The notes under the pieces were generated by a model. It was not told the DNA's origin. It worked only from the letters and a program-made list of their open reading frames with translations, and did not search any database. From Psammoneis japonica (taxonomy: Eukaryota): DNA of 64,000 nucleotides. Shown piece after piece: positions 14,901 through 41,610 of the stretch (position 1 is its first letter; every line of letters begins with the position of its first letter). Location: positions 114,476-178,475 of the forward strand of contig QPGO01000108.1 of NCBI GenBank assembly GCA_008632985.1, read 5' to 3'. A program made the position numbers and the translations under genes.

Positions 14901-14959
14901 CTTTGGCAGATGCTGGCAACTCTGGCATCATTGTGACTGAAAAATGAAGTGCATGGCAT

Positions 14960-15245: not shown

Positions 15246-15501
15246 GCAGTGGAGTGAACCAATGAATGTAAAAGGATGTCCAGCCTTTTTTATGATGTAA
15301 TTTCGAAAAAGAAGGTCAGATTTTGCGTTGGCGGGATTGGTCGGGATTGAGGATTGAGGAGAAACAAACAAGAAGCAAGCATTGGACAAGATCAAGCATG
15401 AATCGCATCATCAAGTCACATCTCATTGACGAGAAACCCTTGTGGATTATCAAGTCAAAGAGGAAAAAGGGAAAACAAAAATGCTGCAAGGACCGTCAAG
15501 A

Positions 15502-18450: not shown

Positions 18451-18453
18451 GGA

Positions 18454-19194: not shown

Positions 19195-19800
19195 GAGACC
19201 AGGAACGATTGGTCCACTGTCCAACCTTTGCAGCGACACCTCTGCTGTTCATCACGAGCTGACAAATGACACAAGTGGCTGTCCAGCAGTTCCTCTCAGA
19301 GCCAATGTCTGTCAGCCATTGACAAGAAGATGCAAAAAGAGAAAGGTGCAGCCAGAGGAGCTTGACGAAGTCTGGCCGTGCACTCTGAGGGCCAACTCAG
19401 GGAAACCATTTGGAGGTGCAAACATGGTGTTTGCAGGTGATCTCAGATGACCAGAGCTGGTTGGGCATGGAATGCATCACCAACACACAAAGAGAAGCGT
19501 GCACTGAGTCCTTCCAAGAGGAGCGGGCAGGGTCAACCTCCAGAACACTTTGCAGATGGCAAAGTGAGTCTTGAGGACACTGACTCAATTGATGAAAGAG
19601 TCATTGTCAAATGCACTCACAGCAGCTTGCTCCAGATGCTGAACATGCCAAGGTGCCCTGCTCATGGAAACCAAGACAGTGATTCTGTCAATGCTGCTCT
19701 CCTGTTTGAAAGGGCGACAAGTTGTGCGAAGGACATGAAAAAGTGGTTGGCTCTGCAGGTGCACTCAGCAACAACTTGCACAAGTCTGGGCAGCACAGAC
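19195..19800 (+). mobile_element. PIF1-like helicase remnant, copy 2
   Basis: GKPFGGANMVFAGDLR* and N.D.DSVNAALLFE; aligns to 11365-11900. Confidence 0.6.
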
Positions 19801-19819
19801 CTTTTTTTCAACCCGCAGG

Positions 19820-21160
19820 GTGCTCCAACCTCCTGAATGACTGGCTTGAGACATGCAAAACTAGCCTCACCCCGATGGAACGCAAGCATCTGAAACATTG
19901 TCTTGAAACCAACAAAGACCCGTTCCCCGTCTTCCACCTTGCTCTAAAGGTGCACAAGCCCCCTCCGCTCCAATCCCAACCGATCGTCTCTGCCAGCGGT
20001 GGCCTGCTCTATGGCTTGGGCATCTGGGTGGATGACAAGCTCCAGAAAGTTGCCCGCCGCCAACGATCACATTTCAAGAGCTCCCTGGACCTGAAACAAG
20101 CTCTTGTCCAAATGGAAATGCCGTCGCATTGCCTCCTCTTCACATCCGACACCGAGGCCTGCTGCTCCAACACACCTGCCAGAAAAGCACTTCGATTGAT
20201 TGCCTCCCACCTCTGACGTCATGAACATGAACATGATGACGTGCCAATGGATGCCCTCATCAAAGCCCTCCGAATTGTGATGGAAAACAATGTGTTCACC
20301 TTCGGAGACACCACTTGGCACCAGCGCAACGGAACCGCCATGGGCACACCACCCGCCCCTCCATGCGCCACCTTGTGCTGCGCACTCCATGAAGACATGC
20401 TCCTGGAGGAGTTTAGCTCCCAGCTTCTTCATCACACAAATGATTTGTCGATGACGTCTTCAGCATTTGGCACATCACTGACACTGCCACTGATGCCGCC
20501 ACCTGGGAAGCATTTGCCTCCAGACTGAATGACTTCGACATCACATGGATCACGAGCCCACAAAGCCACCAAGTTAACTTCATGGACCTGACGATCTCGC
20601 TCCAAGGCCCCCACATCCACACCACCCTCTACGAAAAAGAAATGAATCTGTGCATGTGCATCCCACCTCACTCAGCTCACCCGCCTGGAGCACTCACCGG
20701 CCTCATTGTGGGTGTGCTCCACCACTTTAAAAACCTGTGCTCCAACACCGCCGACGCAAAAGCAAAAGTGAGCCTGATCCACCTTTGACTGCAAGCCCAG
20801 GGTTGCAAACCCAGCAAACTACAACCGCTCTTCCGAAAAGCACATGACCTCATCTTTGGCAATGCTGACAGAACAACAGAAGAGCCCCAGTCAAACCCAA
20901 TCTTCCTGCACCTTCCTTGCCACCCAAACAACCCACCATCCAGTGAACTGCAGAAATTGTGGAAAGGTGCAATGGCCAACCCTCCCCACTCAGAACCTCT
21001 CTCAAACCTCCAAAATCATGCCTGACAACGCATCAGCCTCAACTGCATGGTTGTTTGTTGCAGTCGCTCCTGCAATCTTAGAAATCTCCTTTCCTGCCGC
21101 ACACTCCGAGCCTCCCATGGCCCCCCAGTTTCGTCCCATCGGATTGCAAACATGGAGGCC

Positions 21161-21163
<3 letters not shown>
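19820..21163 (+). mobile_element. Penelope-like retroelement, 5'-truncated RT copy
   Basis: LKVHKPP, RNGTAMGTPPAPP(Y)AT, FVDD, NFMDLTI, TTLYEK, IPPHSAHPPG, FLHLP(Y)HP and terminal C(Y)SR..NL.NLLS; ends in (GA)n; no GIY-YIG seen. Confidence 0.85.
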
Positions 21164-21197
<34 letters not shown>

Positions 21198-21282
21198 AAC
21201 TTGACTTGAATTGAGTCGATTTAATCAACCCATCTGTCCTTCTTCGGATCTTTTTAACGCAACAATGCCCACCGCACGTTGA

Positions 21283-21352
21283 CAACAACAGCCGGCCGCT
21301 GATGAAGCCACTGCAAAAGTCTCACTCTCCTGATTTTGGCCAACATTGTTGT
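21283..21352 (+). ncRNA. Type I hammerhead ribozyme motif (degenerate)
   Basis: GGCCG-CTGATGA at 21299; CGAAA has decayed to CAAAA; stems I and III are recognisable. Confidence 0.6.
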
Positions 21353-21960
21353 GCCTGCCATTGCTGAAATAGTTGGACAAATGTCCGATTGAGCAGCTCT
21401 GCCTCAGCTGCTTGTGTTGTCATTGTTTGTCACATTTGACGGAAAATTGGCTTCACCAATTTTGATCATTCATTCGAGAGAGAGAGAGATGGGTTTTCAG
21501 CCAAAAGGAGAACAGATCCAGTTTTGCACAAGGGTGTGCAGGGTGTGGAGTTGTGGTGCCTCACAGCATTGACATGCTTGTGGTGGTGAAAGTGGAGCTC
21601 ATGCAGCTGTTGTGAAAAAAGCCACATGCTGGGGCCAGGAGAAGAATGACCTTTGCCACCAGCACGCCTTTGGGCAGCACTGCTGCTTTTGCTCCTGCTG
21701 TGAATGCAACACAGAGGAGGGGGACCACACCCCCCATTGCAGACCCAATGGTCAAACCCAAGTCAACCTCATTTGTGAGACATTTGCCAAACATCCCATG
21801 GTGGGCATGACCACAGAGATGAGAGAGAGAGAGAGAGAGAGAGGAAGCATGCAAGAGAGACAGCGCGTGGTGAACTGACTTGAAAAACAATTGATCTAAT
21901 CAACTTGCCTGTCCTCCACCACCACTTGGATCTTTTTAATGCAACAACCTCAACCACATT

Positions 21961-22008
21961 AACAACAACAGCCAGCCACTGATGAAGCCATCGCGAAAGT
22001 CTCACTCC
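21961..22008 (+). ncRNA. Hammerhead motif with intact core, 3'-truncated
   Basis: CTGATGA-AGCCATCGC-GAAA-GTC at 21979-22001; the 3' strands of stems III and I are missing. Confidence 0.55.
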
Positions 22009-22095
22009 ATGCATTGGCTTGGAACGCAATGAACTGACCCACTTGCCTGTCCTCCACCACTCGGATCTTTTTAAAGCAACAACCTCAACCACATG

Positions 22096-22166
22096 AACAA
22101 CAACATCTGGCTGCTGATGAAGCCACCGTGAAAGTCTCACTCCTGACTTTGGCCAACGTTGTTGTG
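22096..22166 (+). ncRNA. Type I hammerhead ribozyme motif
   Basis: CTGATGA (22114)..GAAA-GTC-tcactcct-GAC-TT-TGGCC-aac-GTTGTTGT; both core boxes are present. Confidence 0.7.
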
Positions 22167-23062
22167 CCTGCCATTTGTCAAAACAGTTGGGCAAATGTCC
22201 GAACTGGCAGCTCTGCCTTTTTGAATGACCTGCCATTGAGCAAATTACAAAAACTCAGGAAAATGGACTGTGTCTCATCCTCCCTGCTTGCAACCACTTG
22301 CCAACCTTTGCAATCATGCTTGACAATGCATTGGCCTTGACTGCCTGATCACATGCTGCAGTTGCTCGCGCAACCTTGGCAACCTTCTTTCACATCGCAA
22401 CCTCCACATCTCCAATGGCCTCCCTGTTTTGTCCTGCCAGATTGCAAACAGGGGGGCCACCAAGAGAGAGAGAGAGAGAGAGAGACAGCACAGTGACTTG
22501 AACTCAAATTGAACCAGTTGATTCAAACCGCCTGTCCCTTGCCCCTTGGATTGTTTCAGCACAACAGCTCAGCTGCTTTTTCACAAAGCACATGGCCTCA
22601 TCTTTGGCAACACTGCAAGAGCACCAGAACCCCAAGACAACCCTCCAATCTTTCTGCATGCACCATTTCACCCAAATGATCCACCACCCAGCAAATTGCA
22701 AAAACTTTGGAAGGGAACCACAGCCCGCCCAGCCTGATCACCACCACTCTCCCAGCTCTGCAATCATGCCCACCAGCACATTGGACTTGACCGCATGATT
22801 GTCTGCTGCAGTTGATCATGCAACCTTGGCAACCTCTTGTCATGCCGCAACCTTCTCATCTCACCCCCCCCCCCCCCAGTTTCGTCCTGCCGGGTTGCAA
22901 ACAGGGAGGCCACTGATTGTTTGTTCGTTCGTTCGTTCGTTCGAGAGAGAGAGAGAGAGACAGTGTGTGGTGAACTGATTTGAACAAACAATCAATGCAG
23001 TCAACTCGCCCATCCCCCCCCACCACTCGGATCTTTCTAATGCAACAACCTCAACCACACAA

Positions 23063-23135
23063 ACAACAACAGCAGCCGGCCGCTGATGAAGCCACCACAA
23101 AAGTCCCACTCCTGACTTTGGCCAACGTTGTTGTG
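23063..23135 (+). ncRNA. Type I hammerhead ribozyme motif (degenerate)
   Basis: CTGATGA at 23083; GAAA box decayed; stems retained. Confidence 0.6.
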
Positions 23136-23402
23136 CCTGCTGTTTGCTGCAACAGTTGGATGAATGTCCAAACTGGTGGCTCCCACCTTGGCTGCTTGCA
23201 CTCTTGTTGGTCAAATTTGATGGAATTTTGTTTGTTCATTTGTTCATTTGTTCATTTGTTTGTTTGTTTGTTTGTTTGTTTGAGAGAGAGAGAGAGAGAG
23301 AGAGAGAGCACAGTGACTTGAATTCAAATTGAATGAGTCAATTCAAACTGCCTGTCCCTTGCCCCTTAGATTGTTTCAACACAACAGCTCACCACACATT
23401 GG

Positions 23403-23472
23403 CAACAGCAGCCGGCCGCTGATGAAGCCACTGCAAAAGTCTCACTCCTGACTTCAGCCAACACTGTTGTGC
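23403..23472 (+). ncRNA. Type I hammerhead ribozyme motif (degenerate)
   Basis: CTGATGA at 23419; GAAA box decayed. Confidence 0.6.
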
Positions 23473-23565
23473 CTGCTGTTCATCTAAATGGTTGGATGAC
23501 TGTCCAAATGGTGGCTCTGCCTTGGCTGCTTTATCTTGATGGAAAATTGGCTTTGCCAATTTGTT

Positions 23566-23600
<35 letters not shown>

Positions 23601-23716
23601 GCATGCAAGAGAGACAGCGTGTGGTGAACTGACTTGAAAAAACAATCAATCCAATCAACTCACCTGTCCTCCACCACCACTTGGATCTTTTCAATGCAAC
23701 AACCTCAACCACGTTA

Positions 23717-23786
23717 ACAACAACAGCCAGCCGCTGATGAGGCCACTGCAAAAGTCTCACTCCTGACTTTGGCCAATGTTGTTGTG
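23717..23786 (+). ncRNA. Type I hammerhead ribozyme motif (degenerate), immediately 5' of the long PLE
   Basis: CTGATGA at 23734; GAAA box decayed; stems retained. Confidence 0.6.
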
Positions 23787-23922
23787 CCTGCCATTTGTTG
23801 AAATGGTTGGACAAATGTCCGAATTGGCAGCTCTGCCTTGGCTGCTGTTGTCATCTGTTTGTCACATTTGATGGAGAATCAGCTGTGCCAATTCTGTTTG
23901 TTTGTAAAAGAGAGAGAGAGAG

Positions 23923-26900
23923 TTGAAAGACAACAATGGACACTGTGACCAAGAGACCAGCATCCCCAAACGTGCACGTTTTGATTCAACTGCAGTGAGT
24001 TCTGCCCAGCAGCAGCCAAGGACACCCCTTGCCACTGCTGCCCAATGCATCAGGGACCATGTCGCATTGCTCCAACCCAAGACAGCCACCATCCTTGAGA
24101 GGCTTGTGCTGCAACACCTTCAACTGCAAGCCAGGGCCCATGACAAGGCCTTTCACATCAAAAGGATGACTCATGACAAGGAGTTTGTCCCCTGCTCAGC
24201 CAGAATCAATTTCAAACTTCAAATGTTGAAAGCAGCTGAACAGAGCCAGGAGTTTGCAGCTCTGCAGGAGGAAACAAACAACCTTGTCAAAAACACCCAA
24301 AAAAATGCCTTCAAAAAGCATGTCATCACTGCCACCAAGATTGAATGCAAAGTCCTTTGAGAAGAAATCATGGAGTTCTGCACAAAAGCCATCTGACTCT
24401 CAACAGAAAGCTTCACCATGGCAGACAGTGTCGCCAAGCCTGTTGACACTGCAGCAGTCACTCCACTTGACTGCTGCCATGTGAGTCCCTGCTCAAGTGT
24501 GTCAAAGTCCATCACAATCTAAGACTGGCCAGCATGCAAGAAGAAAATGGCACCGGGGATTCTCCATTTCCAACACAGCTGCAAGCAACAGCACAAGCAC
24601 CAACACTCACCGCAGCCCAGCAACAAGCCAAAAGCCAACTTGACAAAATCTTTCAAGCTCTGGAGCGCATCTTTTTCTCTCCTTGGGACATCTGCTTGGA
24701 AGCAAAAAAAAAACCATGACATCAGTCTCCCATTCAAAAAGATGGACAAGGAGCACTTCAAGTTGGAAGCAATGGAAAACACCAACTTGGAAATTGACGG
24801 AGAACCTGCAGTCAATCCTGCCACCCTGAAAGAACTCGTTTGCAAGGAGACAGAGAAAAATGCAAAAAAGCTGACTCAGCAGGTCAACTTGCTCTCGCAG
24901 CATGTCAAATCAATGAAACAACAGTCATCAAACAAACAGAGGAGGGGCCCAACCACCAACGCCGGCACCTCATCACAAAAAGAAAAAGGCAAAGGTGCCT
25001 CATTGGGTTGCTCAAGGAAACAAAACGCCCTCCACGCGACCGCAGAGCCAATGATGCTGACAAAGACACCGCTGGTGCCAACAAAAACAATCGCTGCCAC
25101 ACCAAATCAAAACAGCCATCAAAAAAGAAGCAGCAGTGCTCCAACACCAACTGGAACAGGAGCCAGAGACAATGTCAGCACAAATCTACCAAATGCATGG
25201 ATTTGTTGCTGATCTCTCCAAATTGCTCTCACACATCGCCTTCCTGCACCTTGGTGACATGCCTGCTTGGTGCTGCTTTGGCAGACCGTCACACCTCCTC
25301 TCCTTTCACAACTGCACATCTGTGTTCAAATCACCAAAGAACTTCAAATCACTCCTTGGTCTCAGCCTCAAGTTCATCCCTGCACCTCACTTCGCTGACA
25401 GTGGCAAGTCACTCAAGTTCCAAGACCACATGCTTGGACATTTCAAGCTGGACCTGGACAAACGCGACTGCTTTGCAAATGCACCAATCAACAACAATGA
25501 AGACTGCTGCAACCCAAGAATGCATCTCCGACCCAACTGGATGCCACCCTCTTGGAATGAAGCCAAAATTGTTGAGTGCCGCTGCGTGAATTTCAAAACA
25601 AAACTCATGCAGCTTTTTGCCAAACGCCATGGTAAAACCAACCTCCTGCCCCGCCAATGCCACGCCCTCACCCATTTGCACAAACAAGATGACTTTGTGA
25701 TTGCCCAATGTGAAAAGAACCCGGGCCCTGCCATTGTTGAAAAAACCAAACACATCAAAATGGCATGCTGCGATCACCTCAACAATGCAGCCGCGTGCCA
25801 CCATCTTAGCAACTCCAAAGCCACCGTGTGCAAATGCCGCATCAAAAAGCTTCTTGCTGACTGGCTCAGAACACACAAAGCCAATCTAACCCCAATGGAA
25901 TGTGAGCATCTCAAACATCACATTGAGACAAATGAAACCCCACCCCCTGTCTTCTGCCTCACTTTGAAGGTGCACAAGCCTCCACCACTTAAATCGCAAC
26001 CCATCGTCTGTGCAAGCGGCAGCTTGCTGCATGGCTTGGGCATCTGGGCAGACACTGAACTATAAAAAGTCATGCATGAGCAACCACCACACTTTAAAAG
26101 CTTGTTGGACCTCAAAAATGAATTGGCCCAAATGGCGGTGCCACCGGACTGCCTCCTCTTCACTTCTGATGCTGAGCCCTGCTGCTCAAACATCCCAACA
26201 AGCAAAGCACTTCAAGCAATTGCAGCCTTCCTGCAATGACATGAGAGTGAATTCCAAGATGTCCCAACAAAGGCCCTCATCAGAGCCCTCCACATTGCAA
26301 TGAAACACAACGTCTTTGCCTTTGGAGACACTGCATGGCTTCAACAAAATGGCGCTGCAATGGGCACACCACCTGACTCCTGGAGGAGTCAGGCGCCAAC
26401 CTTCTCTTCTGCAAGAGATTCGTTGACAATGCATTTGGCATTTGGAAAATCACTGAGCCTGCCACCGACACCGCATGTTGGAGAGCATTTGCACCCAAAA
26501 TGCATGACTGCGACATTGATTGGGTCACGAGCTCCAGACCACACACCACAAACTTCATGGACTTCACTGTCACACTCCAGGGCTCTCGCCTGCACACCAC
26601 CACTCTCCACAAGAAAGCAATGAATCCATGTCCACACATTCCACCACACTCAGCCCATCTGCCTGGAGTGCTTGCTGGCCCAATTGTGTGAATGCTCTTC
26701 TGCTTCAAGAACCTTTGCTCCGATCCAACCAGTGCCAAAGCAAAAATGAAACTTCTTGATCTTTGCCTGCTTGCCCGAGGCTGCAAGCCCAGCAAGCTTC
26801 AACCCATCTTTCAAAAAGCACACGACCACTTTTTTGGAAATGCGATGACTGCAGAAGCGCCCCCATCCAGCCCCCCCATCCAGCCCCCCCATCTTCCTCC

Positions 26901-27160
26901 ATGTCCCACATCACCCACATGACCCACCATTGAGTGAATTGCAGAAGGCCTGGAAAGGAACAATGGCTTCTTCCCCTTGCTCCCAACCACTTGCCAACAT
27001 TCAAAATCACAACCAACAACGCATCGGCTTGGAACACATGACAGCTTGTCCCAGCTGATCATGCAACCTTGGCAACCTCCTCTTGCATCCCATTCTTTGC
27101 ACACCTCTGCTGCCCCCCCAGCTTCATCCCACCGGATTGCAAACAGGGAGGCCACCAAGA
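23923..27160 (+). mobile_element. Penelope-like retroelement, near full length: helical N-terminal/ORF1 region plus RT, no endonuclease detected
   Basis: ORF1-like DKEFVP(R)SARINFKL; RT region LLGLSLKFIP, (D)KN(L)GPAIV, LKVHKPP, NGAAMGTPP, KRFVD, NFMDFTV, IPPHSAH; same 3' end GGATTGCAAACAGGGAGGCCAC followed by (GA)n. Confidence 0.88.
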
Positions 27161-27182
27161 GTTTTGTTCGTTCATTCATTCA

Positions 27183-27214
<32 letters not shown>

Positions 27215-28208
27215 CAAGCAGTGAAGGCCTGTTCCAGCTCCAGGTGCTCCGCGTGGGTTCGATCCCATCATTGGCCCATTTTTGGGTTCAGCGCAAATGA
27301 CTTTTTCAAAATCCGTTTTTTGCCAAATCGAAGGGCAAGCCACCGAATCGAAAAATTTGCGACATTGCAAAATTTGCGACAAATTCCGAATCCCCGCACA
27401 ATCATCGCGCGGCGAGTCGAGAAACGACCCTTGTCACCCTCCAAGATCGTCTTTGCGACGCGGCCAACATCCTCTGGTGCAATTCAAGGTGCAGGCGTTC
27501 TTTCTACTTCGATTAAGAAAAGATATGATGCACGAGAAATGACAAGAAATCCTTATTTTCAAAGGAAATTGCCTTCTCGTGACAGCAACTCATGCCGACG
27601 CATCGCAAGATTTCAACAAAAAATGACCTTTTTGGATGATTACACCGCCTTTCCTCACAAACAAAACGTCACATAGCTCGTCATAATGATGACAATCTGA
27701 TTGGTTTGTTGTTTCATGTCACTTGCAGACCTTCGGTTGTCGAAACAGCATCATTTGCTCATTTGAAGCGAAAAATGAAGCACTCAGAGACCTCGCACGT
27801 GCTTTCATCGTGAAAAAATTCAAGCCATTTGTTTTTATAAATTAATTTGCGATTCGCAAATTTTGCGTTTCAGCAGCAAGTGTACACTTTGCATGTGTTT
27901 TCGGGTGTACACTCACCTTTCGATTTTCGAAATGATCAAAAATGAAGGACTCAATTGTGCCAAATGTGATTTTCGGCTGGTGTCCCATTCTACGTGAAAA
28001 ATGCTCGTGATCACTCACTTTTTCATTTGTCGGAGCTCGTGTTTTTGGTCTTCTTCAACTCAACTGACGTCCGAACATGCCTCATTTCTGCAGACACAAT
28101 GCAGTTAATTTGATTGAGCACGCCAAAAAAATGTGTCCTCTCGACTTGCCATCCGTCTCATCCACCAGCCCTCTCGATGCACACTTTCAATCAAATTTCC
28201 AGTGCATC

Positions 28209-31200
28209 ATGGGCAACAAAAGGAAGAAGCAAAATGGAGTTGGCCGTCGACACAAGTCAGGGACTGGCAACAGCAAAAACAAGAAGCCTTGTCATGAACT
28301 TGAAACACACTCCACGGTCTCCAACCATGTCGTTGCTGCAGCTGAAGCAGCTGCAGCTGCTCCCTTCAATCCGAACAACCCGAACTCTGCTGCCTCCGTC
28401 ACTCCCTCCGTTGCTCCCACCGACCTGGCTGCTTTCAACCCAAACCCCTCCACAGAACACCTCACTCATTGTCCAGTGTCATCCTTGCCAAGACCGCCTG
28501 GCCCCTCCCAAATGCACACTGCAGGAGCGGCCACCACTCCCTCCAACCCTGACTCTGACAATGCAGCCGTCACTCCCTCCGTTGCTCCCACCAACCTGGC
28601 TGCTTTCAACCCGAACACCTCCAAGGAACACCCCACTCATTGTCCAGGGTCATCCTTGCCAAGACAGCCAGGCCCCTCCCAAATGCACACTGCAGGAGCG
28701 GCCGCCACTCCCTCCAACCCCAACTCTGACAATGCCGCCGTCACTCCCTCTGTCGCTTCGGCCAACCGAACTGCTGTCAACCTCACCGCCTCCCAAGGTT
28801 GCCCCACTTTTAATCCTCATGCATTCGAAGCAACCCACAAAGATCCCCAACAGGCACTTTGTCATGCAGCGGTCAAAGTGAGAGAAGGAGTGTTGTCTTG
28901 CGCCGCCACTCAAGAACAACAAATCTGTGCGTTTGTGCATGCTTTGCATTTTCCCGAAATGGCCCCATTTCTTCAGGCTTGTAATTTGACATTGCTGAAA
29001 ACAAATGCTGCGGCCTTGCAAATTGCCAAGCAGTTGGGCAAAATGTGGGCACGTGCCAACGACACCAGCAATGGTCAACACCTCGCTGACGACAAAAAAT
29101 CGTTTGTCCGTGCTCTTGCAACTGGAATCTCCGGTTCACCAGAAAAATCTGCCGAAGAGGAAAAGTTGTCTTCCCATGACTGCGCCAAGGCACTTGGCCT
29201 GAAACGGAGCACTGTTTGTCGCCAAATGAAGAAGGGAAAGATTGCCAGAGAGGCATTGCTTTCAAACACTGACGATGTCATGTGGTCTTCAGTGCAACCC
29301 CGTCGGCGTCCTCACAAAGTTTCCCCTGAGATCCGAAAGGCATTTGTGCACTGGTTGTCAAATCATCCCAACATGGTGCAGTCTCCCAACACACGAGACA
29401 TGATTCTCATTAAAGATGAAGATGGAAACAAGAAACGAGTGAACAAATGGCTGCACAATGTGTCCATGCGCAAGTGTCTGTTGGCGGATTCGAACATGCA
29501 CGTGATGCCAATGGCAAGACCCTCATCAGTGACATGATGTTTCGATTTTTGATTCCCAAGCAGTGTCGAAAAATGAACGCAAGTCAACGCAGCATGTGTC
29601 AATGCAGCGATTGCACCAATGCCAATTTTCTACAAGATGCATTGAACAGGTTTCGAAGGAAGCTTTCAAAAGAGATGGAGGTGGAGCAAAATTGGTTGAA
29701 GCTTGCGAGTGAGGATCCTGAGAACTTGGAGAACTGTGACAGTGCCCTTGGCAAATTGGAGGAAACAATGCGTGTCTGTCAAGAGGAAGCGTTTGGCCCC
29801 AACGGCCATCACCTTCATCCTAAAGCCCAAGATGCAGTTGCAACCATCATTTGTGGCAACGTCAATGGTCAGGATCATCCTCATTGGAAATGCATTTTGG
29901 GTGAATGCGAGCATTGCCCATCCCATCCAACTCCATTGTTGGGACAGAATGAAAGTCCCGGTGCACCCCAAGTTTTGTTTCAACGTCACTTGACTGTAAA
30001 AAGTTGTTCCAAGCATGGTGTGTGCATGGAAGCATGTCCTGTTTGTGAGGCAGATCCAGATGGGAACAAGGGTGCAAAGGTGAAATGCAGGACCTTGTTG
30101 ACAAGGTTCCGAAAACCAGTCGGTGTCTTTACAAAAGAGCACTGCATTCCAAGTTTAGAGAAGCTCCGCTGCCACCTTCCCCATGTGGTCATTCTTGGGA
30201 AAAATCATTGCATGGAAATGCGTTGCAAAGCATTTGAGTCAACACCCAACAGCCTGTTCACATCTCATGACCACTCCGAGAGTGTCAGAAGGCAGAGTTC
30301 AACAACCAAGTTCAGGGTGACCATTGTGGCAACAACCGAACATTGTCAATCGAAGGAAGAGTTTGCGATGCAATGGTTGACAAAGGGCTTCAGAAAACAC
30401 ATCATGCGCATCTCTCTGACTCTTCCAAGCAAGATGCCACCACCACCAATGCTCGCTTGGAAAAGTTTGTCACCTGGTTAAAAAACCGCAACCTGTGTGA
30501 GGCGCGGCTTGTGATTTGGGATCACACTGATGGTTGTGCCAAACAACACCGATGTGCTTTGGCGCTGTGCTTGTTGTCTGTCTTTGCGCACAAACACAAC
30601 ATTGTGTTTGACCGTGCCATTGGAGCACCTGGACATGGCAAAGGAGAGGTTGATGGCATTGGAGCCTGCATCAAATCACTCATGCATCGAGAAATGCAGT
30701 CCACAACTGTTGCAGGAGTCAATGACAAGGATGGGAAAATTGGACCTGAAGCTTTGGTCATGGATGACAACAGTGTTGTAGCTGCACACAGTCATGCAAA
30801 GGAATGTCACAAAACAGTCACAAAGAACAAGAGTGCTTTCGGCACAGTTGGTTGCAGAAAACATGCCAAGAGGGAATCCCTTTGAAAGTCAATGGAAAGG
30901 GTGCATTGTCTGCAGGAAGCTGACAAAGTTCTTGGCTCTTCAATCAAAGTCAAGTTGACTGGATTGGTGCAAGTGCACATGCACCATTGTGGCATTGGAG
31001 CCTTGTGCCATTTCCGATTTGAACCTCTTTTCCCCATTGGCTGGGCTGCGATGCGAAGAATTCCTTGTGCTTGTGAAGCCTGCCTGGATCAGCTGAAACG
31101 GCCTTGGGTTAAAAATGTCAAGCCAACAGAGCAGCCACGACATGCAGGTGGCAACCGAGCTTGCAAACTGTGGCCCATCTTTGAGGGACTGAACGATTGG

Positions 31201-31800
31201 CAAGTGTGTCAGGTGATTCAAACAGATGAGAGTGACGCCGACGAGGTGCAGCTGGTTCACAAATCTGTGTTGGACTTCCTGACTGAGGAAATGGCCAAGG
31301 AAATTGTTCCAAACAGCTGTGCCGCATTGTCTTGTGAATCTGAGGAGGGGCTCCATCTGCTGCAATGGGATGAACTCCCCCACAAAGCACAGGAGGACGA
31401 GGTTTGGAAAGAGTTTGACCCACCCATGACTGTTGAGGCCGGTGAATGGGTTTGCAAGGGAGTGCATCTTAACCCTGTTCCACGGGCCAGAGGATGGCAC
31501 ACTCCCAGTGATGCTGAGGAATGCAAGACAAGAGTGTTGCTCAAGCAAATTGCAGTTGGCAGCATTGAGCTTGATGAACCATCAGCCAATCTGGAGCTGC
31601 CAAGTGCATGCATGAAGGAACTCTGGATGCCATCTGACAGTGGGAGGCAATGGATTGTTTTGAGGACTGTTCAGACGAGGTGGAGGAACAAGACATCGAA
31701 ACTGGTGAGTGGGGGGGAGAGAATGACGACATGGAAGACACTGTGGATGATGATGAGAGCACGGCAGGGGACAGTGACAGCAACAATTCGGACAAATAAA
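28209..31800 (+). pseudogene. Sola2-like DDE transposase, hypermutated and frameshifted
   Basis: C.C.DC, KCILGECEHC, D(Y)SE, LSD..KQD, WDHTDGCAKQ(Y)R and APGHGKGEVDGIG match the DG..QY and GHGKG..DG motifs of Sola2-type transposases; RRIPCAC..C follows downstream. Confidence 0.75.
28396..28755 (+). repeat. 171-bp (57-codon) tandem repeat in the transposase N-terminus
   Basis: CCGTCACTCCCTC at 28396, 28567 and 28738. Confidence 0.9.
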
Positions 31801-34800
31801 ATGGCAATGTCATGCAACTAGATTGACCATCCAACACAAAAGCTTTCCTTTTTGCACGCAACTTCTGCTGCACCACCCTGGGAAGTTCGAACTGGTGCAC
31901 CATGAACACTTGTTGCAGACGCTTTTTCGCCACACATTTCACCTCATGTTCCTCGTTCCCAAGACACCAATTGAAACACTTGATGTCCTTTGCTGGCAAT
32001 GCAAAAGGGTGGTTGGAATCAAAGATCCATCCATGGTGCAAGGCAATGCAGTGGTTGTTCACAAGATGGCACAAAGTTGTGAAGTCATCATTGCAGGTCG
32101 TCACGTCAAATTCACCACCTGCTGCAAGGGAAATTGTTCGATCCACACTGCCGCAAAACTTCATGTTTGAGTTCTCAGGCGGGAATTTTTCTTTCAAACG
32201 ACCGTTCAACATGTTCTTTGCAAACAACATGCGCTTGTTGTCAGTGTCAGCACAGTTGGCAGATGTTTGAATGTGAGAAGCAATGCAGTCTCTCATTTCC
32301 ACGTCACCAGCACAATCAAGAACACTGGCCAGGGAGGAAAAAACGCAAGTGTTGTTTTGTCCTTGCTGCAGGAATTTCATGGGTGGACCGCTCGTCGGCA
32401 AGTTGCTGTTCGATGGCATCAACATGTTTCCTTCCGGCAAGGAGCAACAACCATCCGATGGCTTCAATTCTTTCAAATCTTTCCACACATCTGGAAACCG
32501 AAACTTAAAATTGCACTCAGCCCAATCCAGGGCCACATGCATGGGACGGTTCCCCTCCAAGCTGCAGCCAATGAAATCAGCTCCCCGCCCAACAGGTGGA
32601 AGTTTTTGAATCTCCGCTTCAGCCAATCTCTTCAGTTTGGCAATCTGTGGTGGGTTGCAAATTGATTCCACCTTGTTCTTAATCTCGTCCCTGCATTTTC
32701 AATTGAGTTGCTGGGGAATGTTTGGTTTGTGTTTGGCACGTGCAATGAGGCCCGCACACATGTTCATGGGATGGCCGTTCATTTCATCGTGTCGCAAGTC
32801 AAACCATGGTTCCCACAACATGACGCCCTTGTTTTTCCCTTCAAAGCAACCAAACAAGTGAGGAACATCTCCTTCGGAATCACCAGGACGCTGACGCCTG
32901 CTGTTCCATTTGCTTGGATCAATCCAAGTGAGTTTTTTAACCTGCAACATCACTTGAGCGTCTTTGCACTCACACTCATGTTGATCCCTTTCTTGTTGGT
33001 GTTGCTGCGCTTTGGTCAGCCGATGCCATGAAGTGTCTCCTTTTGGCCTTGGTTTTGGGACAGAGCTGCGAAGGCCAATGAGATCCTCATCCTCATGCAC
33101 TCCAGGGATTTCTTTCAAAAGCTGATGTGAGCGTCTGCAAAAAGCCCCCCCCCACCATCTCCCACTTCTCTTCTGCAGCCGGGGCTTTCTTCCTCTTGTC
33201 TCTTGCAGCCTTGGCTTTCTCCCTCTTCTCTTGGGCAGTCTTGGATTTCTCCCTCTTCTCTTCTGCAGCTGCAGAAACTTCTTCCTTGTGTTCATCGTCC
33301 TCCTCATCCTCAGTTTCCTCTGGATCTTGCTCCTCCTGGATTTCATCTTGCACACCGTCATCTTCCTCCTCTTCCTCCTCTTCCTCAGTTGACTGATCCA
33401 TCGCCCCATCTTCCTCCTCTTCCTCAGCCGATTGATCCATGGCCCCATCTTCCTCCTCCTGGTTTTTGTCTCGCAGTTGCAACCTTGCAGTGCCAGCCTC
33501 GGCCTTTTGCAGGTCGTCCGTCTCTTCAGTGCCCTCCTTCCCCTCTTCCTCTTCCTCCTCCTCCACCTCTTCCTTCAACCCTGCATCACGGGCACCAGCA
33601 TGATGCATGTGGCGATGGCAATGAATCCTTCTGCAAAACTTGCACCATACAAGTCCAGGAGCTGCCTTGCACCAATCAGCAAGGTGAGCAAGCGGCTCTT
33701 TGAAACAATCCTTCCTGCTTGGTCTGGCAGGGAAGTGAACTTCAACCATCTGTTTGTCTTCGGTGACGGCCTCCACTAACTTGGAGTGTCATTGCGGCTT
33801 GAAAGGCTTGCACCGCTGGTCCAGCGGACAAGCGGTGCCTCTGCATTCACCATCAGAGGTGATCCGCAATGCATGGTTGCACCACCAACCTACAATGATG
33901 TCAAACAAGGCCTCGGATGGCAGTCTGTCATCGGGGTCGAATGGCCCAAATGAGAAAATCCTCCGGCAGCCACTCCTGCAACTCATGAGCACTTTGTGTG
34001 GTGCGTTGGTGGAAGTTCGGGAATGCAGGGATCTTCCTGCATGTCATCATCTGACTGTTCAAGCTTCTCCCTTTTACAATGCTCGTCATGAAAAACACAA
34101 TCGTCGCTGTGATCCACAATGGGCTTCTTCAACTTCTCACAGCTGATGCATGGTTTTCGACGCAGCTTTTCGTCCACCTGCTTCCTCTGAGCGATTTCAT
34201 TTGGAACAGAGCGATGGTTGCAGATTGAACCCCAGTGCTGTTTTGCAGGTAGAACGGGACATCTTGTTTCACATTTGAACTTGACGTCCAACCCCTTCAA
34301 AGCCAACATTTCAAAATTGTTCTTCACCCCCTTTGGAGACTTAATTCGCCACCAACTTTGAAACACGACCTCGCCAAAAGGCAGCCACGCATGTGTCTTT
34401 AAATCTTTGGTCGACTTTTCATCATCGCACGTTTCTAGGTTTTGAATGTTGACCAAAGATGCCAAGTGGAATCGGTGCTTGGCAATGCACGAATGATCAG
34501 CAATGCATCCTCCTTCAACAAGCAGTTCCTCCCAAAAGTCTTCATCCTTGCGGATCTCTGTTGCAACGTTCTGATGCTCGGCGCTGGAATGAGGCAATGC
34601 CAAAACAATTGCAGAGCTCATTGGAGCAATCCTCTCCTTTGCACACAGGGCAACAGTGTTGCCTTGATCATTCATCATGAGATCATCCCAGTCCCAGTGC
34701 TTGCAGACGTTCGCCAGATCAGAACGATCACTCATGGTGTCCGTGATGTCCTCAAAACCCATCACTCCCATGTGATGAGACTTCAAAGTCTTCTGACAAT

Positions 34801-35518
34801 GAAGACATGCATCAAGTCCAATCAAAAAAGGACATGCACCTCAACTCGATGGTGTGATCGATTGACTCTCATCGCCCGCCCCAACTGACACAACCGGAGA
34901 CTCTGTCACAAGGGCGCAATCAACAAGCAGGCCAATGTTTGTCTTGACACGGTGCATCAAAACAGCAGCAACATTTTGCTTGTCCTTCATGGCGTCCCTC
35001 ATCAACATTCCTGATGGCACCACAACCAACATCAAGAGGTGCTGGTTCTTGTCCTTGATGTGTTGTTGGTTCAGTTGCGGTCGATTCTCGGAGTTAAATT
35101 TTTCACAAAACCAATCGACAACAGTGTTGCGGAATGTGTTCCGTGTTTTGGCACTGTTGAACCCATCCAAACCATTCTTGTGATGAAGAACATGAAAGAG
35201 AGGGCTCATCTTCTTTGTTCCACGATCTTCTGTGGTCAAGATGCTCAAATCTACAAGACCTTGAGGGCACTCAAGGGGATCAACTGCATCTTGGAGAGGC
35301 ACAGTGTGCCAAGTTTTGGCTTTGCCCTGCGGTGGGTGATGTTCCGCGAGTGCCTTGACGCAACGCTGGATGCAAAAGGAAACCTTCAACATGCTGGAAG
35401 AGTCATTGTTAGCTTGAGGAGAACTGCCGCCAATGGGGCGCTGCTGGGAGGCTGCTTTGGCCAACGTGTCCATGGCAAATGCACTGCTTTTGCACTTCTG
35501 TTTGTGTGACAAATGCAC
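31800..35518 (-). pseudogene. Accessory/cargo ORF(s) of the transposon: acidic repeat region and papain-like peptidase-type domain
   Basis: Long minus-strand ORF segments (34841-35518, 33983-34825, 33093-33776, 31541-32671); QQGQNNTCVFSSLAS and NHCIAL..GWIFDSN give a Q/C/H/D pattern; Glu-rich EEEDGAMDQS repeats. Confidence 0.5.
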
Positions 35519-35745
35519 TCCAGAGAGGGGGGCAACGTCAGTTGCCGTGAAAGTGACGTGGATGAACAGAGGCAGCCTCTAAGGCAGTTCCAGATGCTGA
35601 AAAGTGTCAAACAGCAAGCTGCACTCCCGCTTGCATGACAAATGCACTCCAGAGAGGGGGCCAACGTCAGTTGCCGCGAAAGTGATGCGGATGAACAGAG
35701 GCAGCCTCTGAGGCAGTTCCAGATGCTGAAAAGTGCAAACAGCAA
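35507..35745. repeat. 129-bp tandem duplication
   Basis: TGACAAATGCACTCCAGAGAGGGGG at 35507 and 35636. Confidence 0.9.
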
Positions 35746-36829
35746 GCGTCACAGTGAAAAAAAACCAAGACAAGTTTGTTCCAGTGGAAACTGTCACTCT
35801 GAGAACACTCGGGCGAATGCTTGAGTTTTGTAGAAATTCTGAAGGCCCTGGTGCAAAACAACCATAAAACAACACGTGAGAAGCAACCAGAAAAATGCAC
35901 GCACGTGGTGACGCGTAAAAAAAAGCACAACAGAACGACTTGCCAAATTTGAAACAAGAGAGCACAAAGAGATGGTGTCATCCGCAACAACAGCAACTCT
36001 TTAGAGCTGCAATTGCATTGCGACAACAATGATGTGACTTTGAAATGAAAGGAACAGGCGGTTCCATGCAACCGCAAGGGCAAAGAGGGGGTTGCGGAGT
36101 GGTGACAGCGGTGTGCTGCGTTGTGGCTGGTGTGTGTTGGGCGGACGGCACGTGTTCATAGAAGTCAGTGTTGTTCTGCGCATCGCCAGAAAAACATTAA
36201 ATGCCAACTGACACGATTCTTCCTGTGACGCATCATGCACCTCAGTTGTTGCACATGAGCACTGGTGTCACAAATGTGTTGCGTCATTGAAACAATCAAT
36301 GTTTGCACAAAGCCAAAAAGTGCGAGCTCTGCTGGGTGGAGACAAAAATGTCTGGTGCTGAAAACTGTGCAGAAAATCTAGCGTGATGAAAAGCGGAGCA
36401 CCTGGAGCTGGAACAGGCCTGAACTGACTTGAAAAAACAATCAATCTAATCTCAACTTGCCTGGCCCGGGGTTGCAAACCCAGCAAACTACAACTGCTCT
36501 TCCAAAAAGCACATGACCTCATCTTTGGCAATGCTGACAGAACAACAGAAGAGCCCCAGTCAAACCCAATCTTCCTGCATCTTCCTCACCACCCAAACGA
36601 CCCGCCATCCAGTGAACTGCAGAAATTGTGGAAAGGTGCAATGGCCAACCCTCCCCACTCACAACCTCTCTCAAACCTTTGAAATCACACCCGACAACGC
36701 ATCGGCCTCAACCGCATGATTGTTTGTTGCAGCTGCTCCTGCAATCTTGGAAATCTCCTTTCCTGCCATGTGCTCCGAGTCTCCCATGGCCCCCCAGTTT
36801 CATCCTGTTGGATTGCAAACATGGAGGCC

Positions 36830-36872
<43 letters not shown>

Positions 36873-36956
36873 AAGTTGACTTGAATTGAGTTGATCCAAT
36901 CAACCCGTCTGTCCTTTTTCGGATCTTTTTAACGCAACAACGCCCGCCGCACGTCA

Positions 36957-37028
36957 ACAACAACAGCCGGCCGCTGATGAAGCCACCGCAAAAGTCTCAT
37001 TCTCCTGACTTCGGCCAATGTTGTTGTG
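36957..37028 (+). ncRNA. Type I hammerhead ribozyme motif with perfect stem I (GGCCG/CGGCC)
   Basis: GGCCG-CTGATGA (36974)-AGCCACCGC-AAAA-GTC..GAC-TT-CGGCC; only G12 is lost (CG->CA). Confidence 0.68.
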
Positions 37029-37267
37029 CCTGCTGTCACTGAAATGGTTGGACAAACATCCAATTGAGCAGCTCCACCTCAGCTGCTTGTGTCGCCATTG
37101 TCACATTTGACAGAAAATTGGCTTTGCCAATTGTGGCTGTTCATTCGAGAGAGAGAGAGAGAGAGAGCAAGCAGTGAACTGACTTGAAAAAACAATCAAT
37201 CTAATCTCAACTTGCCTGTCCTCCACCACCACATGGATCTTTTCAATGCAACAACCTCAACCACATC

Positions 37268-37338
37268 AACAACAACAGCCAGCTGCTGATGAAGCCACCA
37301 CAAAAGTCTCACTCCTGACTTTGGCCAACATTGTTGTG
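37268..37338 (+). ncRNA. Type I hammerhead ribozyme motif (degenerate)
   Basis: CTGATGA at 37286; GAAA box decayed. Confidence 0.55.
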
Positions 37339-39193
37339 CCTGCTGTTTGTCAAAACAGTTGGACAAATGTTCGCACTGGTGGCTCCACCTTGGCTGCTGT
37401 CATCATCTGTTTGTCACATTGTTTGATGGAGAATCGGCTGCACTGATTCTGTTCATTTGTTCAAGAGAGAGAGGAAGCATGCACCACATTTCTGAAAGCA
37501 AGCCAAGTGCCTTTTGTGACAGCCAATGCTGCCACAGGGCACAAGCAACAAGGGGCCAGAGCAGTGTCTGCCATCTGTTTGTCCACAGCTGGAGCCACAT
37601 CCAAAGCTGGGTGTGTGCAAGACTGTCCAGAGTTGAGGCCGCCAGGGGGATGTCTCAGCCTTTGCAAGAACAATGCCTGCTGCTAAAAAAAGAGATCACA
37701 GCAGGCCCTTTTTTGTGTCAGAAGGACACAAGGCCCTTGCCTGGTTGATGAGAGGGCAAAGAGTGGCGTGCTTCTCTGTGGAAGACTGCAGAGAGGTGCC
37801 AGGCTGGAAACAAGATTGGCTTGGAGTGATGCTGCACAGTCATGCTCTAGCTTGTCCAGGTGGGGGCCCAAATTGCTGGACTGCTGAGCTTTGCATTTTT
37901 TGACAACCCAGTGCAAAAAGCATGCACACCTCTGTGCAAAGCTTTGAGTCATTTTGCACCAGTTTGCAGTGCAACTCAACAACATTTTTTGCCCTGCTGT
38001 GTTCTCTGACATCTGCAGAGGAGAGTGCAGCCATGCACACAAAGTTTCCAAAACTTCAAGCATGGAGAGGTGCTAAAGTCTGAAGTTGTGCCACAAAAGT
38101 GGCTGTCAATTTCCACTGCAGAAGGCAAATGCATTCATTGCCTGGTGTGTTGTGAGCTGGAGAGCTTTGTGCAGAGTTCAGTGTGAGGGTGTGGTGTGAA
38201 GCAAAGCTGAAAAACTCCTCTTTTTTCCAAAAAATGTGAAATTTTCCATTCACCCAACACATCAACAGCAAGCAGCAGTTCTCAGAAATTGGCCAAATGT
38301 CTGAGCTTTGTGAGCTCAGCTTGTGACTGCAAGCAGGCAAGACATGACAACACAGCCAAATCAACAACAGCAGCAGTTTGCTCATTTGTGGCTTTGTCAT
38401 GTGTTGCCATGTGAGGCAGCTTTTGATGGCCTCTTCCCACACCCATTGTGTCTCCACTTGTGGCCACGACAACAAGGCAATGAGAAAACAAACACACCGC
38501 GCATCAGCAGCCACATGGCTTGTCAATGTCATTTGTGAAGAAGCTTGGACAAACCTGGAAGACTGCTGCAAAGCTGTGCACAACAGGAGCTTGTGACATG
38601 ACAACATGTGCTGCGTTCACAACCATTCTGTGCTCAAGCCTGTGACTTTTGGGTGTCGTTGATGCCTTTGCTTGACAGAATGACACTTTCAAGACAATCT
38701 GTTGTGCAAGCTCCCTCAATCACACTGTCCAGTCTTGAGCCACCATCTCCTTCTCAATCCTGGCTTGAGTGCCCCTTCTGCCAGCCCTTGCTCCAGTCTG
38801 GCCACCGCAAAAGAAGAGAAGAAGCTTCTGCATCAAGGGCACCAACGAGCTGCTTGCGAGCCTGTCATGACCACCTGCTGAGTCACAGTGGAGCACACAT
38901 CATTCCCTTTGCTCTGTTGAGGACCACCATGGCTCCTCATCCCTTGGAAGCTTCGCCCACCAACTTCTCTTCAGCCAGCTCTCTGCTCTCTTCTTTAATG
39001 AGCCGTCTGCCAGTCCCTTCGTGTGTACGGTAACCAAAATGCCTTGCCAGCAGCAACGCAGCGGCACGGGGCGCGCACAAACCAAGACCATTGCGAACTC
39101 CGAACTGCGAACCCCATCATACCGGCATCTTGGATCTCTCTGTGTTCGCATCCCCCCAAAACAACAAAACAATCCATTCCATCCCTGCTGACT

Positions 39194-41102: not shown

Positions 41103-41610
41103 CCCTTCAACCACCACGGAGCAAATCTCCACGGGCGGAGATTTGCTCTGCTCAAGGAATTGTGAGGTGTCATGCATTCATGCAATGATGCAATGAACAT
41201 GTTATAAAAATGTCACATCATGTACAATCTACGTAAAACACACCACAGGCATTTTCAATTTGCTTGTTGCGAGCAAATCTCCACACCGGCGGAGATTTGC
41301 TCCAAGGGTGTGGCATTCACTGCTCTGTTGTGACAGCAACACATCACAAATTTCATTGTCAAAGGTTAAGATTTAGTTCCTCTCTGTTCATGGATGAAGC
41401 ATGCAAAAAACCCAGTGTCAAAAGTCGACATTGAACTTTCTAAATTGCAGAAATGGCCCCCCAGAGAGCGCTCGGCGAATGCGCACTCCAAAACAAAATC
41501 GCGCAGATCCTTTGTCACTCACATCTGAAAGTGTTGTGTTCATTGCATTTGTGACACAAGTGAGCAAATCTCCACCCATGGAGATTTGCTCAAGTCTGGT
41601 GGTTGAAGGG
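41103..41610. mobile_element. piggyBac-like MITE with three internal palindromes
   Basis: TTAA|CCCTTCAACCACC at 41103-41115 with inverse GGTGGTTGAAGGG at 41598-41610; GAGCAAATCTCC-N6/8-GGAGATTTGCTC at 41119, 41271 and 41562; the right flank is CCAA, not TTAA. Confidence 0.7.

Follow-up and report, generated by a model that had tools for sequence, protein, structure and literature searches.

How can one and the same conserved tyrosine codon end as cysteine in one copy of a repeated element and as histidine in another? This question is raised by a stretch of 64,000 nucleotides from the diatom Psammoneis japonica (Stramenopila; assembly GCA_008632985.1, contig QPGO01000108.1, positions 114,476-178,475 of the forward strand), which we refer to as the window and number from its first base. 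It carries three copies, A, B and C, of a reverse-transcriptase element (Table 1), in which a first-pass annotation had recognised such Cys/His pairs and had proposed that independent hits on either DNA strand produced them from Tyr. Here, we provide evidence that these pairs belong to a regional loss of the dinucleotide TpA, which has turned into TpG and CpA in long blocks of transposon DNA and in most of an adjoining host gene encoding a sulfatase-like protein. We consider it probable that silenced or repeat DNA of this diatom undergoes an in-place, DNA-level hypermutation of TpA to TpG and CpA on both strands. What the data establish is the signature and the direction of this process, that it hits both strands within sharp regional limits and by a context rule, and that it acts on DNA other than the retroelement.

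TpA is lost from discrete blocks

Two-state segmentation on TpA counts, with block edges that are sharp within 50-bp bins, separates six depleted blocks from the normal DNA of the window. The blocks comprise 34,650 of the 64,000 bp and keep 127 TpA, with observed-to-expected ratios (o/e) of 0.04-0.06, a deficit that chance cannot remotely account for. The normal DNA comprises 29,350 bp with 1,129 TpA; the o/e is 0.53-0.59 in its four large blocks and 0.28 in a 500-bp island at 27501-28000. The TpA o/e of the whole window, 0.30, is thus very unevenly distributed. With the TpA density of normal DNA, the depleted blocks would hold about 1,330, so that some nine tenths have been lost. These blocks are discrete regions with the reverse-transcriptase element and high-copy repeats; one block reaches about 1.7 kb into a host gene, and the depletion extends to non-coding DNA and to blocks other than those of the retroelement.

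The loss is confined to one dinucleotide. TpG and CpA are raised in the blocks, CpG is lowered to a variable degree (o/e 0.13-0.44) and the GC content is 0.47-0.50, as against 0.48-0.49 in the large normal blocks and 0.39 in the 500-bp island. In trinucleotides (Y being C or T), TAY falls from 21.1 per kb in normal DNA to 0.84 in the blocks, while TGY rises from 37.3 to 56.6 and CAY from 33.7 to 51.0; TAA falls from 8.7 to 1.9, TAG from 8.6 to 0.9, and TGA rises from 19.4 to 24.2. It is because of the loss of TAY, TAA and TAG that the blocks contain so many long open frames without Tyr. In contrast to TA, the dinucleotide AT is spared (o/e 0.72-1.08 in 2-kb windows inside the blocks), and all 7 listed sites at which the ancestral state could be polarised (see below) are TA, which indicates that the hits are restricted to TpA. 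Across the window, AA and TT each have an o/e of 1.21, and TC, at 1.04, shows no depletion.

Could the blocks have been emptied of TA by selection, by codon preference or by GC-biased gene conversion? The fact that TpA is mildly low in the large normal blocks as well would be in keeping with such a force. However, dead, frame-shifted copies and non-coding DNA are equally affected, GC content is alike in depleted and normal blocks, and the AT dinucleotide is undepleted. Moreover, relatives of the retroelement elsewhere have normal TpA, and conserved Tyr residues in the catalytic fold of a host enzyme have been destroyed. We give this explanation practically no credence.

One host gene in two versions

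The former state of the TG and CA steps is best seen in block 2, which spans unclassified DNA, now roughly single-copy, and runs into the 5' four fifths of the host gene. The main frame of this gene encodes a sulfatase (Pfam PF00884, E=3.2e-27). We aligned its product with 27 homologues of 47-56% identity and called a column conserved if at least 16 of the 27 share the same residue. Among 20 conserved Tyr columns, 7 now read Cys (TGY), 6 His (CAY), 3 Tyr and 4 another residue, whereas 16 of the 20 conserved Arg columns are still Arg (14 of them CGN) and at no such column has Arg given way to Cys, His, Gln, Trp or a stop codon (Fisher's exact p=1.3e-5 for the contrast). Since 13 of 20 Tyr have turned into Cys or His with Arg kept, the Cys and His codons concerned come from TAY and not from CGY. 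CpG decay has barely set in within this gene, where TpA loss is nearly complete. The last altered conserved Tyr lies at 17138 and the next, at 17261, is intact, in agreement with the block edge at 17250. The mutated frame is still open; it is free of new stops because a change of TA to TG or CA makes only TGA, and this only out of TAA.

The same gene occurs in a second form. As read evidence we used contigs from three public runs (X1, X2 and X3) aligned to positions 11000-30999 of the window, a region on which no X3 contig aligned. X1 carries a second version over 15525-15613, at a depth of 26.6 of 55.9, and X2 has that version too. Here each of the 7 C>T or G>A differences listed converts a TG or CA of the window to TA, and one A>G difference converts CA to CG. 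All 13 X2 contigs together differ from the window at 78 positions (C>T 28, G>A 36, A>G 4, T>C 2, others 8), 68 of which fall in the single contig that covers the sulfatase-like gene; over the 2,063 aligned bases of the two versions, at least 54 of these 68 differences are of the TA type and at most 14 are of other types. Thus, one sample carries an unmutated and a heavily mutated version of this gene. Because the second version has TA where the window has TG or CA, the direction of change is from TA to TG/CA. The about equal X1 depth suggests that the two versions are alleles.

The X2 contig over the gene, 2,067 bases long, skips 15732-15853, and the homologues are gapless across that point. 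We infer that this 122-bp skip is a spliced intron, in which case X2 looks like cDNA. The mutated version was absent among the X2 contigs aligned, which is in itself no evidence of its silence. In the mutated version the intron (at about 15732-15740) appears to begin with GC and not GT, four contig letters being unaligned there and the junction inexact. A TA-to-CA hit on a GTA donor could be the origin of this start.

The second version also bears on the question of whether TA is merely read as TG or CA, as a sequencing or assembly artefact of base modification in repeats. In some long-read data, methylated motifs lead to systematic miscalls of A as G and of C as T, and the window does differ from the X1 contigs at some pyrimidine-purine (YR) sites in repeats. 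However, the existence of a TA-bearing version argues against a base-calling artefact: at 15525-15613 the two versions are a TA form and a fixed mosaic of TG and CA, where strand-dependent miscalls would give TG forms against CA forms. Furthermore, X1 contigs with a k-mer depth of 57-75 closely reproduce TA-free repeat DNA, with 0 differences over 19418-19899, 21438-21809, 24250-24641 and 25351-25996 and 1 over 26143-26668. The orderly dependence of TpA survival on neighbouring bases, described below, is likewise foreign to an artefact, which we find very hard to credit. The X1 depth of 53-89 over 11000-15000 also shows that DNA that is approximately single-copy at 90% identity can nonetheless be TpA-depleted.

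Both strands are hit, and TpA survival varies with the neighbouring base

TG and CA are nearly equal in number in five of the six blocks (653:613, 610:610, 1085:1145, 405:403 and 69:62). Block 3 alone is skewed, with 741 TG and 960 CA on the sense strand; this excess of CA is the opposite of what A-to-G editing of sense RNA would leave. Along the sulfatase-like gene, the 7 Cys and 6 His form 8 runs, as compared with 7.5 expected by chance, and hence do not cluster. Similarly, the same site has different outcomes, TG in one case and CA in the other, between copies of the retroelement.

These observations bear on ADAR-like A-to-I hyperediting of double-stranded retroelement RNA, which would have been fixed by reverse transcription and integration. 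The element does appear to encode a reverse transcriptase, as judged by consensus motifs, and the preference of ADAR/ADAT enzymes for a 5' U can be counted for this explanation. However, single copies contain both outcomes, TG and CA, about equally often, the skew of block 3 has the wrong sign, and the copies have diverged by different outcomes at the same site. In addition, a host gene that retains its intron carries the same changes, and depletion is equally strong in blocks without a recognisable retroelement and in a probable DNA-transposon-like element. We judge this route highly improbable. The proposal of the first-pass annotation that DNA was hit, rather than RNA edited or codons preferred, thus finds support in the two outcomes within copies, their balance in most blocks, the intron-bearing gene and its TA counterpart.

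Which TpA survive depends on the bases around them. Relative to normal DNA, survival is 0.50 for TTAA, 0.34 for CTAA/TTAG, 0.13 for CTAG, 0.105 for GTAA/TTAC, 0.056 for CTAC/GTAG, 0.05 for ATAA/TTAT, 0.046 for ATAG/CTAT, 0.017 for GTAC and 0.011 for ATAC/GTAT, and 0 of 68 for ATAT. These values can be reduced to one survival term per strand, which varies with the base that follows the adenine on its 3' side (A 0.71, G 0.36, C 0.13, T 0.07), and two such terms multiplied match the mixed contexts within about a factor of two. It is this dependence on the 3' base that makes ATAT and GTAC vanish and lets TTAA persist. Avoidance of TA or TTAA as integration sites was also considered and rejected, TTAA being the best survivor. 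Moreover, His is found after a preceding A in 6 of 8 cases and otherwise in 4 of 17 (p=0.028); as His results from a bottom-strand hit, its enrichment after A agrees with the per-strand rule.

Since TpA is palindromic, the rule reads equally as a 5'-neighbour rule for thymine (A > G > C >> T), and the sequence gives no means of telling which of the two bases, A or T, was hit. The thymine of TpA in transposon DNA might accordingly be oxidised by a TET/JBP-type enzyme to 5-hydroxymethyluracil (5hmU) or 5-formyluracil, mispairing with G and changing T to C, which would show as TA to CA on one strand and as TA to TG on the other. 5-Formyluracil mispairs with G; 5hmU as such pairs with A and has only a weak mutagenic effect. 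In dinoflagellates, according to the part of the published study that we draw on, 5hmU marks and silences transposable elements and, in Crypthecodinium, prefers thymine in TA and TC (PMC11572971). The undepleted TC of the window speaks against such a preference here, and we regard thymine oxidation as an unlikely, though not negligible, source of the changes.

The ancestry of the retroelement codons

By self-BLAST, copies A and C share 89% identity over 701 columns, and copies A and B 67% over 1,364. Between A and C, 67 of 691 aligned bases differ, 64 of them by transitions, part of which are of the CpG type. Their dinucleotide columns include 14 with TG in one copy and CA in the other, 21 with CG against TG or CA, 3 with TA against TG or CA, 9 with CG in both and 2 with TA in both. 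By a two-rate estimate from these counts, about 6 of the 14 TG/CA columns possibly come from CpG. The DNA comparison of A and C alone therefore cannot settle ancestry, and it is the protein columns that do.

For these, copy A was translated with X at two TGA codons; phmmer returned 1,600 relatives (E <= 0.001), and the best 150 were aligned with copies A, B and C. In the motif F-L-H-L-P-x-H-P, the variable residue, as read directly, is TGC in copy A (20918-20920) and CAC in copy C (36587-36589), and the homologues have Tyr in 95, Phe in 40 and Trp in 3 of 144 cases. Just before K-R-F-V-D, copy A has CAC at 20433-20435 (the earlier annotation had given its last base) and copy B has TGC at 26410-26412, a pairing with which the DNA alignment agrees; the column before K-R-[Y/F]-I-D-D is Tyr in 103 of 122 homologues. 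Directly after this codon, copy A has a 2-base indel. The stretch equivalent to N-L-Y-L-Y-I reads AAT CCA TGT CCA CAC ATT in copy B (26623-26640) and AAT CTG TGC ATG TGC ATC in copy A (20645-20662), and among the 150 homologues its columns are N in 125, L in 130, Y in 90 or H in 53, L in 130, Y in 142, and I in 84 or L in 64. The ancestral Tyr that had been presumed from family conservation is thus upheld, and Arg, the other conceivable ancestor of a Cys/His pair, lies outside the three commonest residues at every named column in the 150 homologues.

The warning that a CGC codon could give the same pair proved real elsewhere in the element and not at the sites named: copy A has CAC at 20723 and copy B TGC at 26701 in a column where 134 of 150 homologues have Arg. 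Other conserved Arg columns read TGA/TGC/TGC and CAG/CGA/CGG in copies A, B and C. When the TG/CA discordances within codons were traced to their ancestral columns, 5 were compatible with TA (Leu, Leu, Tyr, Val and Tyr), 1 was Arg, 1 reflected a local misalignment and 2 were unconserved.

Is it conceivable, then, that the Cys/His pairs arose solely by decay of methylated CpG in Arg CGC codons, with no process specific to TpA? The decayed Arg columns, the 21 columns of A and C with CG against TG or CA, and the depletion of CpG in all blocks are what such decay would leave. However, the columns at the three sites named belong to Tyr or Leu, and CpG decay cannot remove TpA (o/e 0.05). The sulfatase-like gene adds that 13 Tyr changed and no conserved Arg turned into Cys, His, Gln, Trp or a stop, with TA in the counterpart at 7 of 7 listed sites. 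As the sole cause, CpG decay is refuted by the sulfatase-like columns, the counterpart contigs and the retroelement columns, and we leave it next to no probability in that role; it remains as a second, slower process. The hits on the two strands were independent, as had been claimed; their placement after insertion holds in the narrower sense that they came after the copies had diverged.

The homologues have a median Tyr content of 4.05%, and copies A, B and C have 1, 0 and 0 Tyr in 201, 208 and 85 residues. All 80 metagenomic relatives of the retroelement have a TpA o/e of at least 0.45 (median 0.69), as found with search patterns that required Tyr and could miss mutated relatives. Given their normal TpA, the retroelement family is not natively TA-poor. 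One of the 150 relatives (P0266) has 0.9% Tyr, 5.1% Cys and 7.1% His, and by this composition looks like another TpA-hypermutated copy.

The class of the element is tentative. Neither its pieces nor 7 homologues (6 of them full-length, 623-761 aa) matched Pfam at up to E=10, and a profile of 38 homologues matched no PDB chain. The homologue consensus has the reverse-transcriptase-like motifs D..MYTNI, GTAMG and RYIDD. Penelope-like elements (PLEs) have a reverse transcriptase of their own clade and usually a C-terminal GIY-YIG endonuclease. The homologues stop soon past the matched region, with no room for a GIY-YIG domain, and the PLE label of the first-pass annotation is a presumption from the likeness of motifs, which no library confirmed. 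GA/TC microsatellites lie 3' of the copies and repeat fragments (21150-21210, 22430-22480, 23290-23340, 27150-27215 and 36850-36900) and may be part of the retroelement tail.

Edges, spared DNA and further features of the window

The limits of the process can be followed in a duplication (10615-11895 and 18451-19643) that carries a gene for an FSH1-like serine hydrolase. The two genes are 94% identical over about 600 bp, have kept their TpA and differ by mixed substitutions. Their adjoining TA-free repeat flank is 87-90% identical, and the differences there are mostly swaps of TG with CA and of CG with TG. In both copies of the duplication the edge is sharp, the hydrolase keeping its TpA up to the shared flank.

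A second spared piece is a high-copy insertion of about 540 bp within depleted DNA, which other X1 copies lack. Its joints lie at 27334/27335/27339 and 27876/27879/27920, its summed X1 depth is 4,000-5,000, and an X2 contig covers 27342-27617. No Rfam family and no tRNA (ARAGORN) was found in the window, this island included. The insertion may be a later, young arrival, which would look untouched, or a small expressed element.

The other repeats differ in copy number. Over 19671-24339, in block 3, the summed X1 depth is 400-900, and over 28342-30999, in block 4, it is about 2,000. The latter belongs to a large, high-copy element (28001-37000) with long Tyr-free open frames on both strands. One of these frames, 30271-30885, resembles DUF7869 proteins (Atlas score 0.95, 22 of 30 matches), which serves as a lead only, and the frames of this element had no Pfam match at up to E=10.

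Two side observations concern genes of the window. In normal DNA, a long open frame at 61573-63006 on the minus strand has repeated units of the form W...MF..L..FK...GHC.VP, which may be helicase-associated (HA) domains, common in diatoms. The Sec24 of the window is 65-77% identical to the 120 relatives listed, for which all organism names given are diatoms, among them Seminavis robusta (71%), Nitzschia inconspicua (69%) and Fistulifera solaris (68%), as well as Epithemia, Discostella and Pseudo-nitzschia; two further entries have names truncated at 'Thal...'.

Table 1. Features of the window that enter the argument (positions are those of the window; o/e, observed-to-expected ratio)
Feature	Positions	Strand	Particulars
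Depleted block 1	1..5400		18 TpA, o/e 0.05; CpG o/e 0.13
Depleted block 2	11401..17250		22 TpA, o/e 0.06; CpG o/e 0.39
Depleted block 3	19201..27500		32 TpA, o/e 0.06; retroelement copies A and B, tandem and nested repeat fragments
Depleted block 4	28001..38950		44 TpA, o/e 0.06; CpG o/e 0.44
Depleted block 5	41451..45000		9 TpA, o/e 0.04; CpG o/e 0.20
Depleted block 6	63401..64000		2 TpA; block cut by the end of the window
Sulfatase-like gene, hypermutated version	15481..17497	+	start codon near 15481; intron ~15732-15853; open frame 15788-17497
Copy A, reverse-transcriptase element	19838..21489	+	self-BLAST, phmmer; sites 20433 CAC, 20648-20659 CTG TGC ATG TGC, 20723 CAC (from Arg), 20918 TGC
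Copy B, reverse-transcriptase element	25858..27213	+	self-BLAST; sites 26410 TGC, 26626-26637 CCA TGT CCA CAC, 26701 TGC (from Arg)
Copy C (3' part), reverse-transcriptase element	36464..37160	+	site 36587 CAC
High-copy insertion, ~540 bp	27335..27876		normal TpA and CpG within depleted DNA

Proposed mechanism

In the mechanism that we propose, DNA treated as repeat or silenced, that is, the transposon blocks and the adjoining part of a host gene, would be mutated in place. A:T pairs of the palindromic 5'-TA-3' would be turned into G:C, a hit on the top strand giving TG and one on the bottom strand CA. The two strands would be hit independently, at a rate governed by the adenine's 3' neighbour (T > C > G >> A), and the process would be near saturation, having removed about 90% of the expected TpA. 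It would never create a stop codon; Tyr would become Cys or His, and Leu, Ile and Val codons ending in TA would be rewritten. A separate, slower decay of CpG to TpG or CpA acts on the same blocks. With TpA loss and CpG decay together, Tyr and Arg codons can both end as a Cys/His pair.

The chemistry is most likely an enzymatic deamination of adenine to hypoxanthine, which is read as G, in 5'-TA on either strand, and chromatin or small RNA would presumably guide it. It is also tempting to speculate, with some reserve, that diatoms and chlorarachniophytes, and perhaps the stramenopile-alveolate-rhizarian (SAR) lineage, might share a chromatin- or RNA-guided editor of adenine in double-stranded DNA at 5'-TA-[T/C]. 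Such an editor could serve genome defence and disable transposons without making stops, and it could silence and scramble one allele of a host gene beside a transposon and leave the other intact.

Several points weigh against the proposed mechanism or limit how far it can be taken. The unmutated, 94%-identical hydrolase duplicate makes simple repetition an insufficient trigger, and the TA-normal insertion at 27335-27876 shows that not everything within a block is affected. The status of the two sulfatase-like versions as alleles or paralogues is judged from depth alone. The three runs stem from a single sample and study and may be those from which the assembly was made, so that the read evidence is not independent of it; that X1 consists of accurate short reads and X2 of cDNA we deduce from the k-mer depth and from the 122-bp skip, respectively. 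Beyond the differences listed there are 294 more between reads and window, and the restoration of TA was checked at 7 sites. As to the context rule, survival was computed with normal window DNA as a proxy for the ancestral composition, and a tetranucleotide flux test gave only moderate agreement (r=0.54), ATAC/GTAT running contrary to the model.

Significance and comparison with known systems

Repeat-induced point mutation (RIP) of ascomycetes is the textbook case of a cell that mutates its own repeats, and this has been thought to be fungal and to proceed through cytosine. If our reading is correct, a mirror image of RIP that removes TpA is not confined to one species; in algae of an ecologically dominant group it would shape a large part of the genome, and it could be read from any assembly as TpA-free blocks. 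The third-base preference and the pairs of mutated and unmutated gene versions would allow rates and enzyme candidates to be tested. There are also consequences for annotation. Long spurious open frames arise in the blocks because only TGA stops remain, the proteins encoded there lack Tyr and escape Pfam, and transposon ages based on divergence would be badly wrong.

The likeness to RIP lies in a defence-like action, in dinucleotide-specific transitions on both strands of repeats, in sharp limits and in an occasional leak into adjacent genes. In contrast, RIP turns CpA/TpG into TpA and produces AT-rich DNA and stops, whereas here TpA becomes TpG/CpA, GC content has barely moved and no stops are made. 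The hallmarks of RIP, namely C-to-T change at CpA, gain of TpA and enrichment in AT, are thus absent, TpA having been lost, CpA/TpG gained and GC left unchanged. Furthermore, duplication alone does not suffice here, a 94%-identical, 600-bp gene duplicate being untouched.

Decay of methylated CpG offers a second parallel, since there too a palindromic YR step turns into TpG or CpA according to the strand hit, and it is present in the same blocks. It differs in acting on C and not on A:T pairs, and it is the slower of the two here, as the sulfatase-like gene indicates. ADAR/ADAT enzymes, APOBEC proteins and the engineered TadA adenine base editors share other features: adenine editing has the same net effect of A read as G, these enzymes prefer a 5' U or T, and restriction of selfish elements by deaminases is established. 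However, these enzymes act on RNA or single-stranded cDNA and leave one-strand signatures, whereas both strands are hit here. RNA editing would leave A-to-G changes on the sense strand only and only in retro-copied sequence; instead, the changes are on both strands and extend to an intron-bearing host gene. The 3' preference of ADAR for G is likewise at odds with the order found here (T, C > G >> A). To our knowledge, no natural deaminase has been established that edits adenine in chromosomal DNA region by region, and in the open-access and bioRxiv literature searched we found no report of TpA loss in diatom repeats.

The closest relative of the process described here comes from the chlorarachniophyte Bigelowiella natans. 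Two of its integrated viral regions acquired 231 de novo mutations in mutation-accumulation lines; 230 of these were A>G or T>C changes, all at TpA, and the rate was about 1000-fold over background (Mettrop et al., bioRxiv 2026, 10.64898/2026.01.13.699255). In the same species, a TpA-poor subset of coding sequences was enriched for reverse-transcriptase and DDE domains, and an ADAT2-like candidate enzyme was proposed (10.64898/2026.01.13.699255). The two systems are alike in changing almost only A:T to G:C at TpA, with both TpG and CpA outcomes, in acting regionally on foreign or selfish DNA, and in a long-term loss of TpA with gain of CpA and TpG.

In contrast, the host is a member of Rhizaria there and a diatom, of Stramenopila, here, and the targets are giant-virus and virophage inserts there and transposon blocks with one version of a host gene here. 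The depletion also differs in degree, with a Rho of 0.45 reported for the nucleocytoplasmic large DNA virus (NCLDV) region as against the near-saturation of the present blocks (o/e 0.04-0.06). The B. natans mutations were seen de novo, whereas ours are deduced from copies, homologues and a counterpart contig, and the third-base rule, by which TAA is spared and TAT and TAC are hit, is not among the results in the part of the B. natans report that we compared. Thus, this kind of hypermutation has been described once before, in 2026, in an unrelated lineage, and the diatom is a new case. With respect to the same part of that report, what the diatom adds is the neighbour-base rule, the near-saturation of the loss, and the presence in a single sample of one host gene in both a mutated and an intact version.

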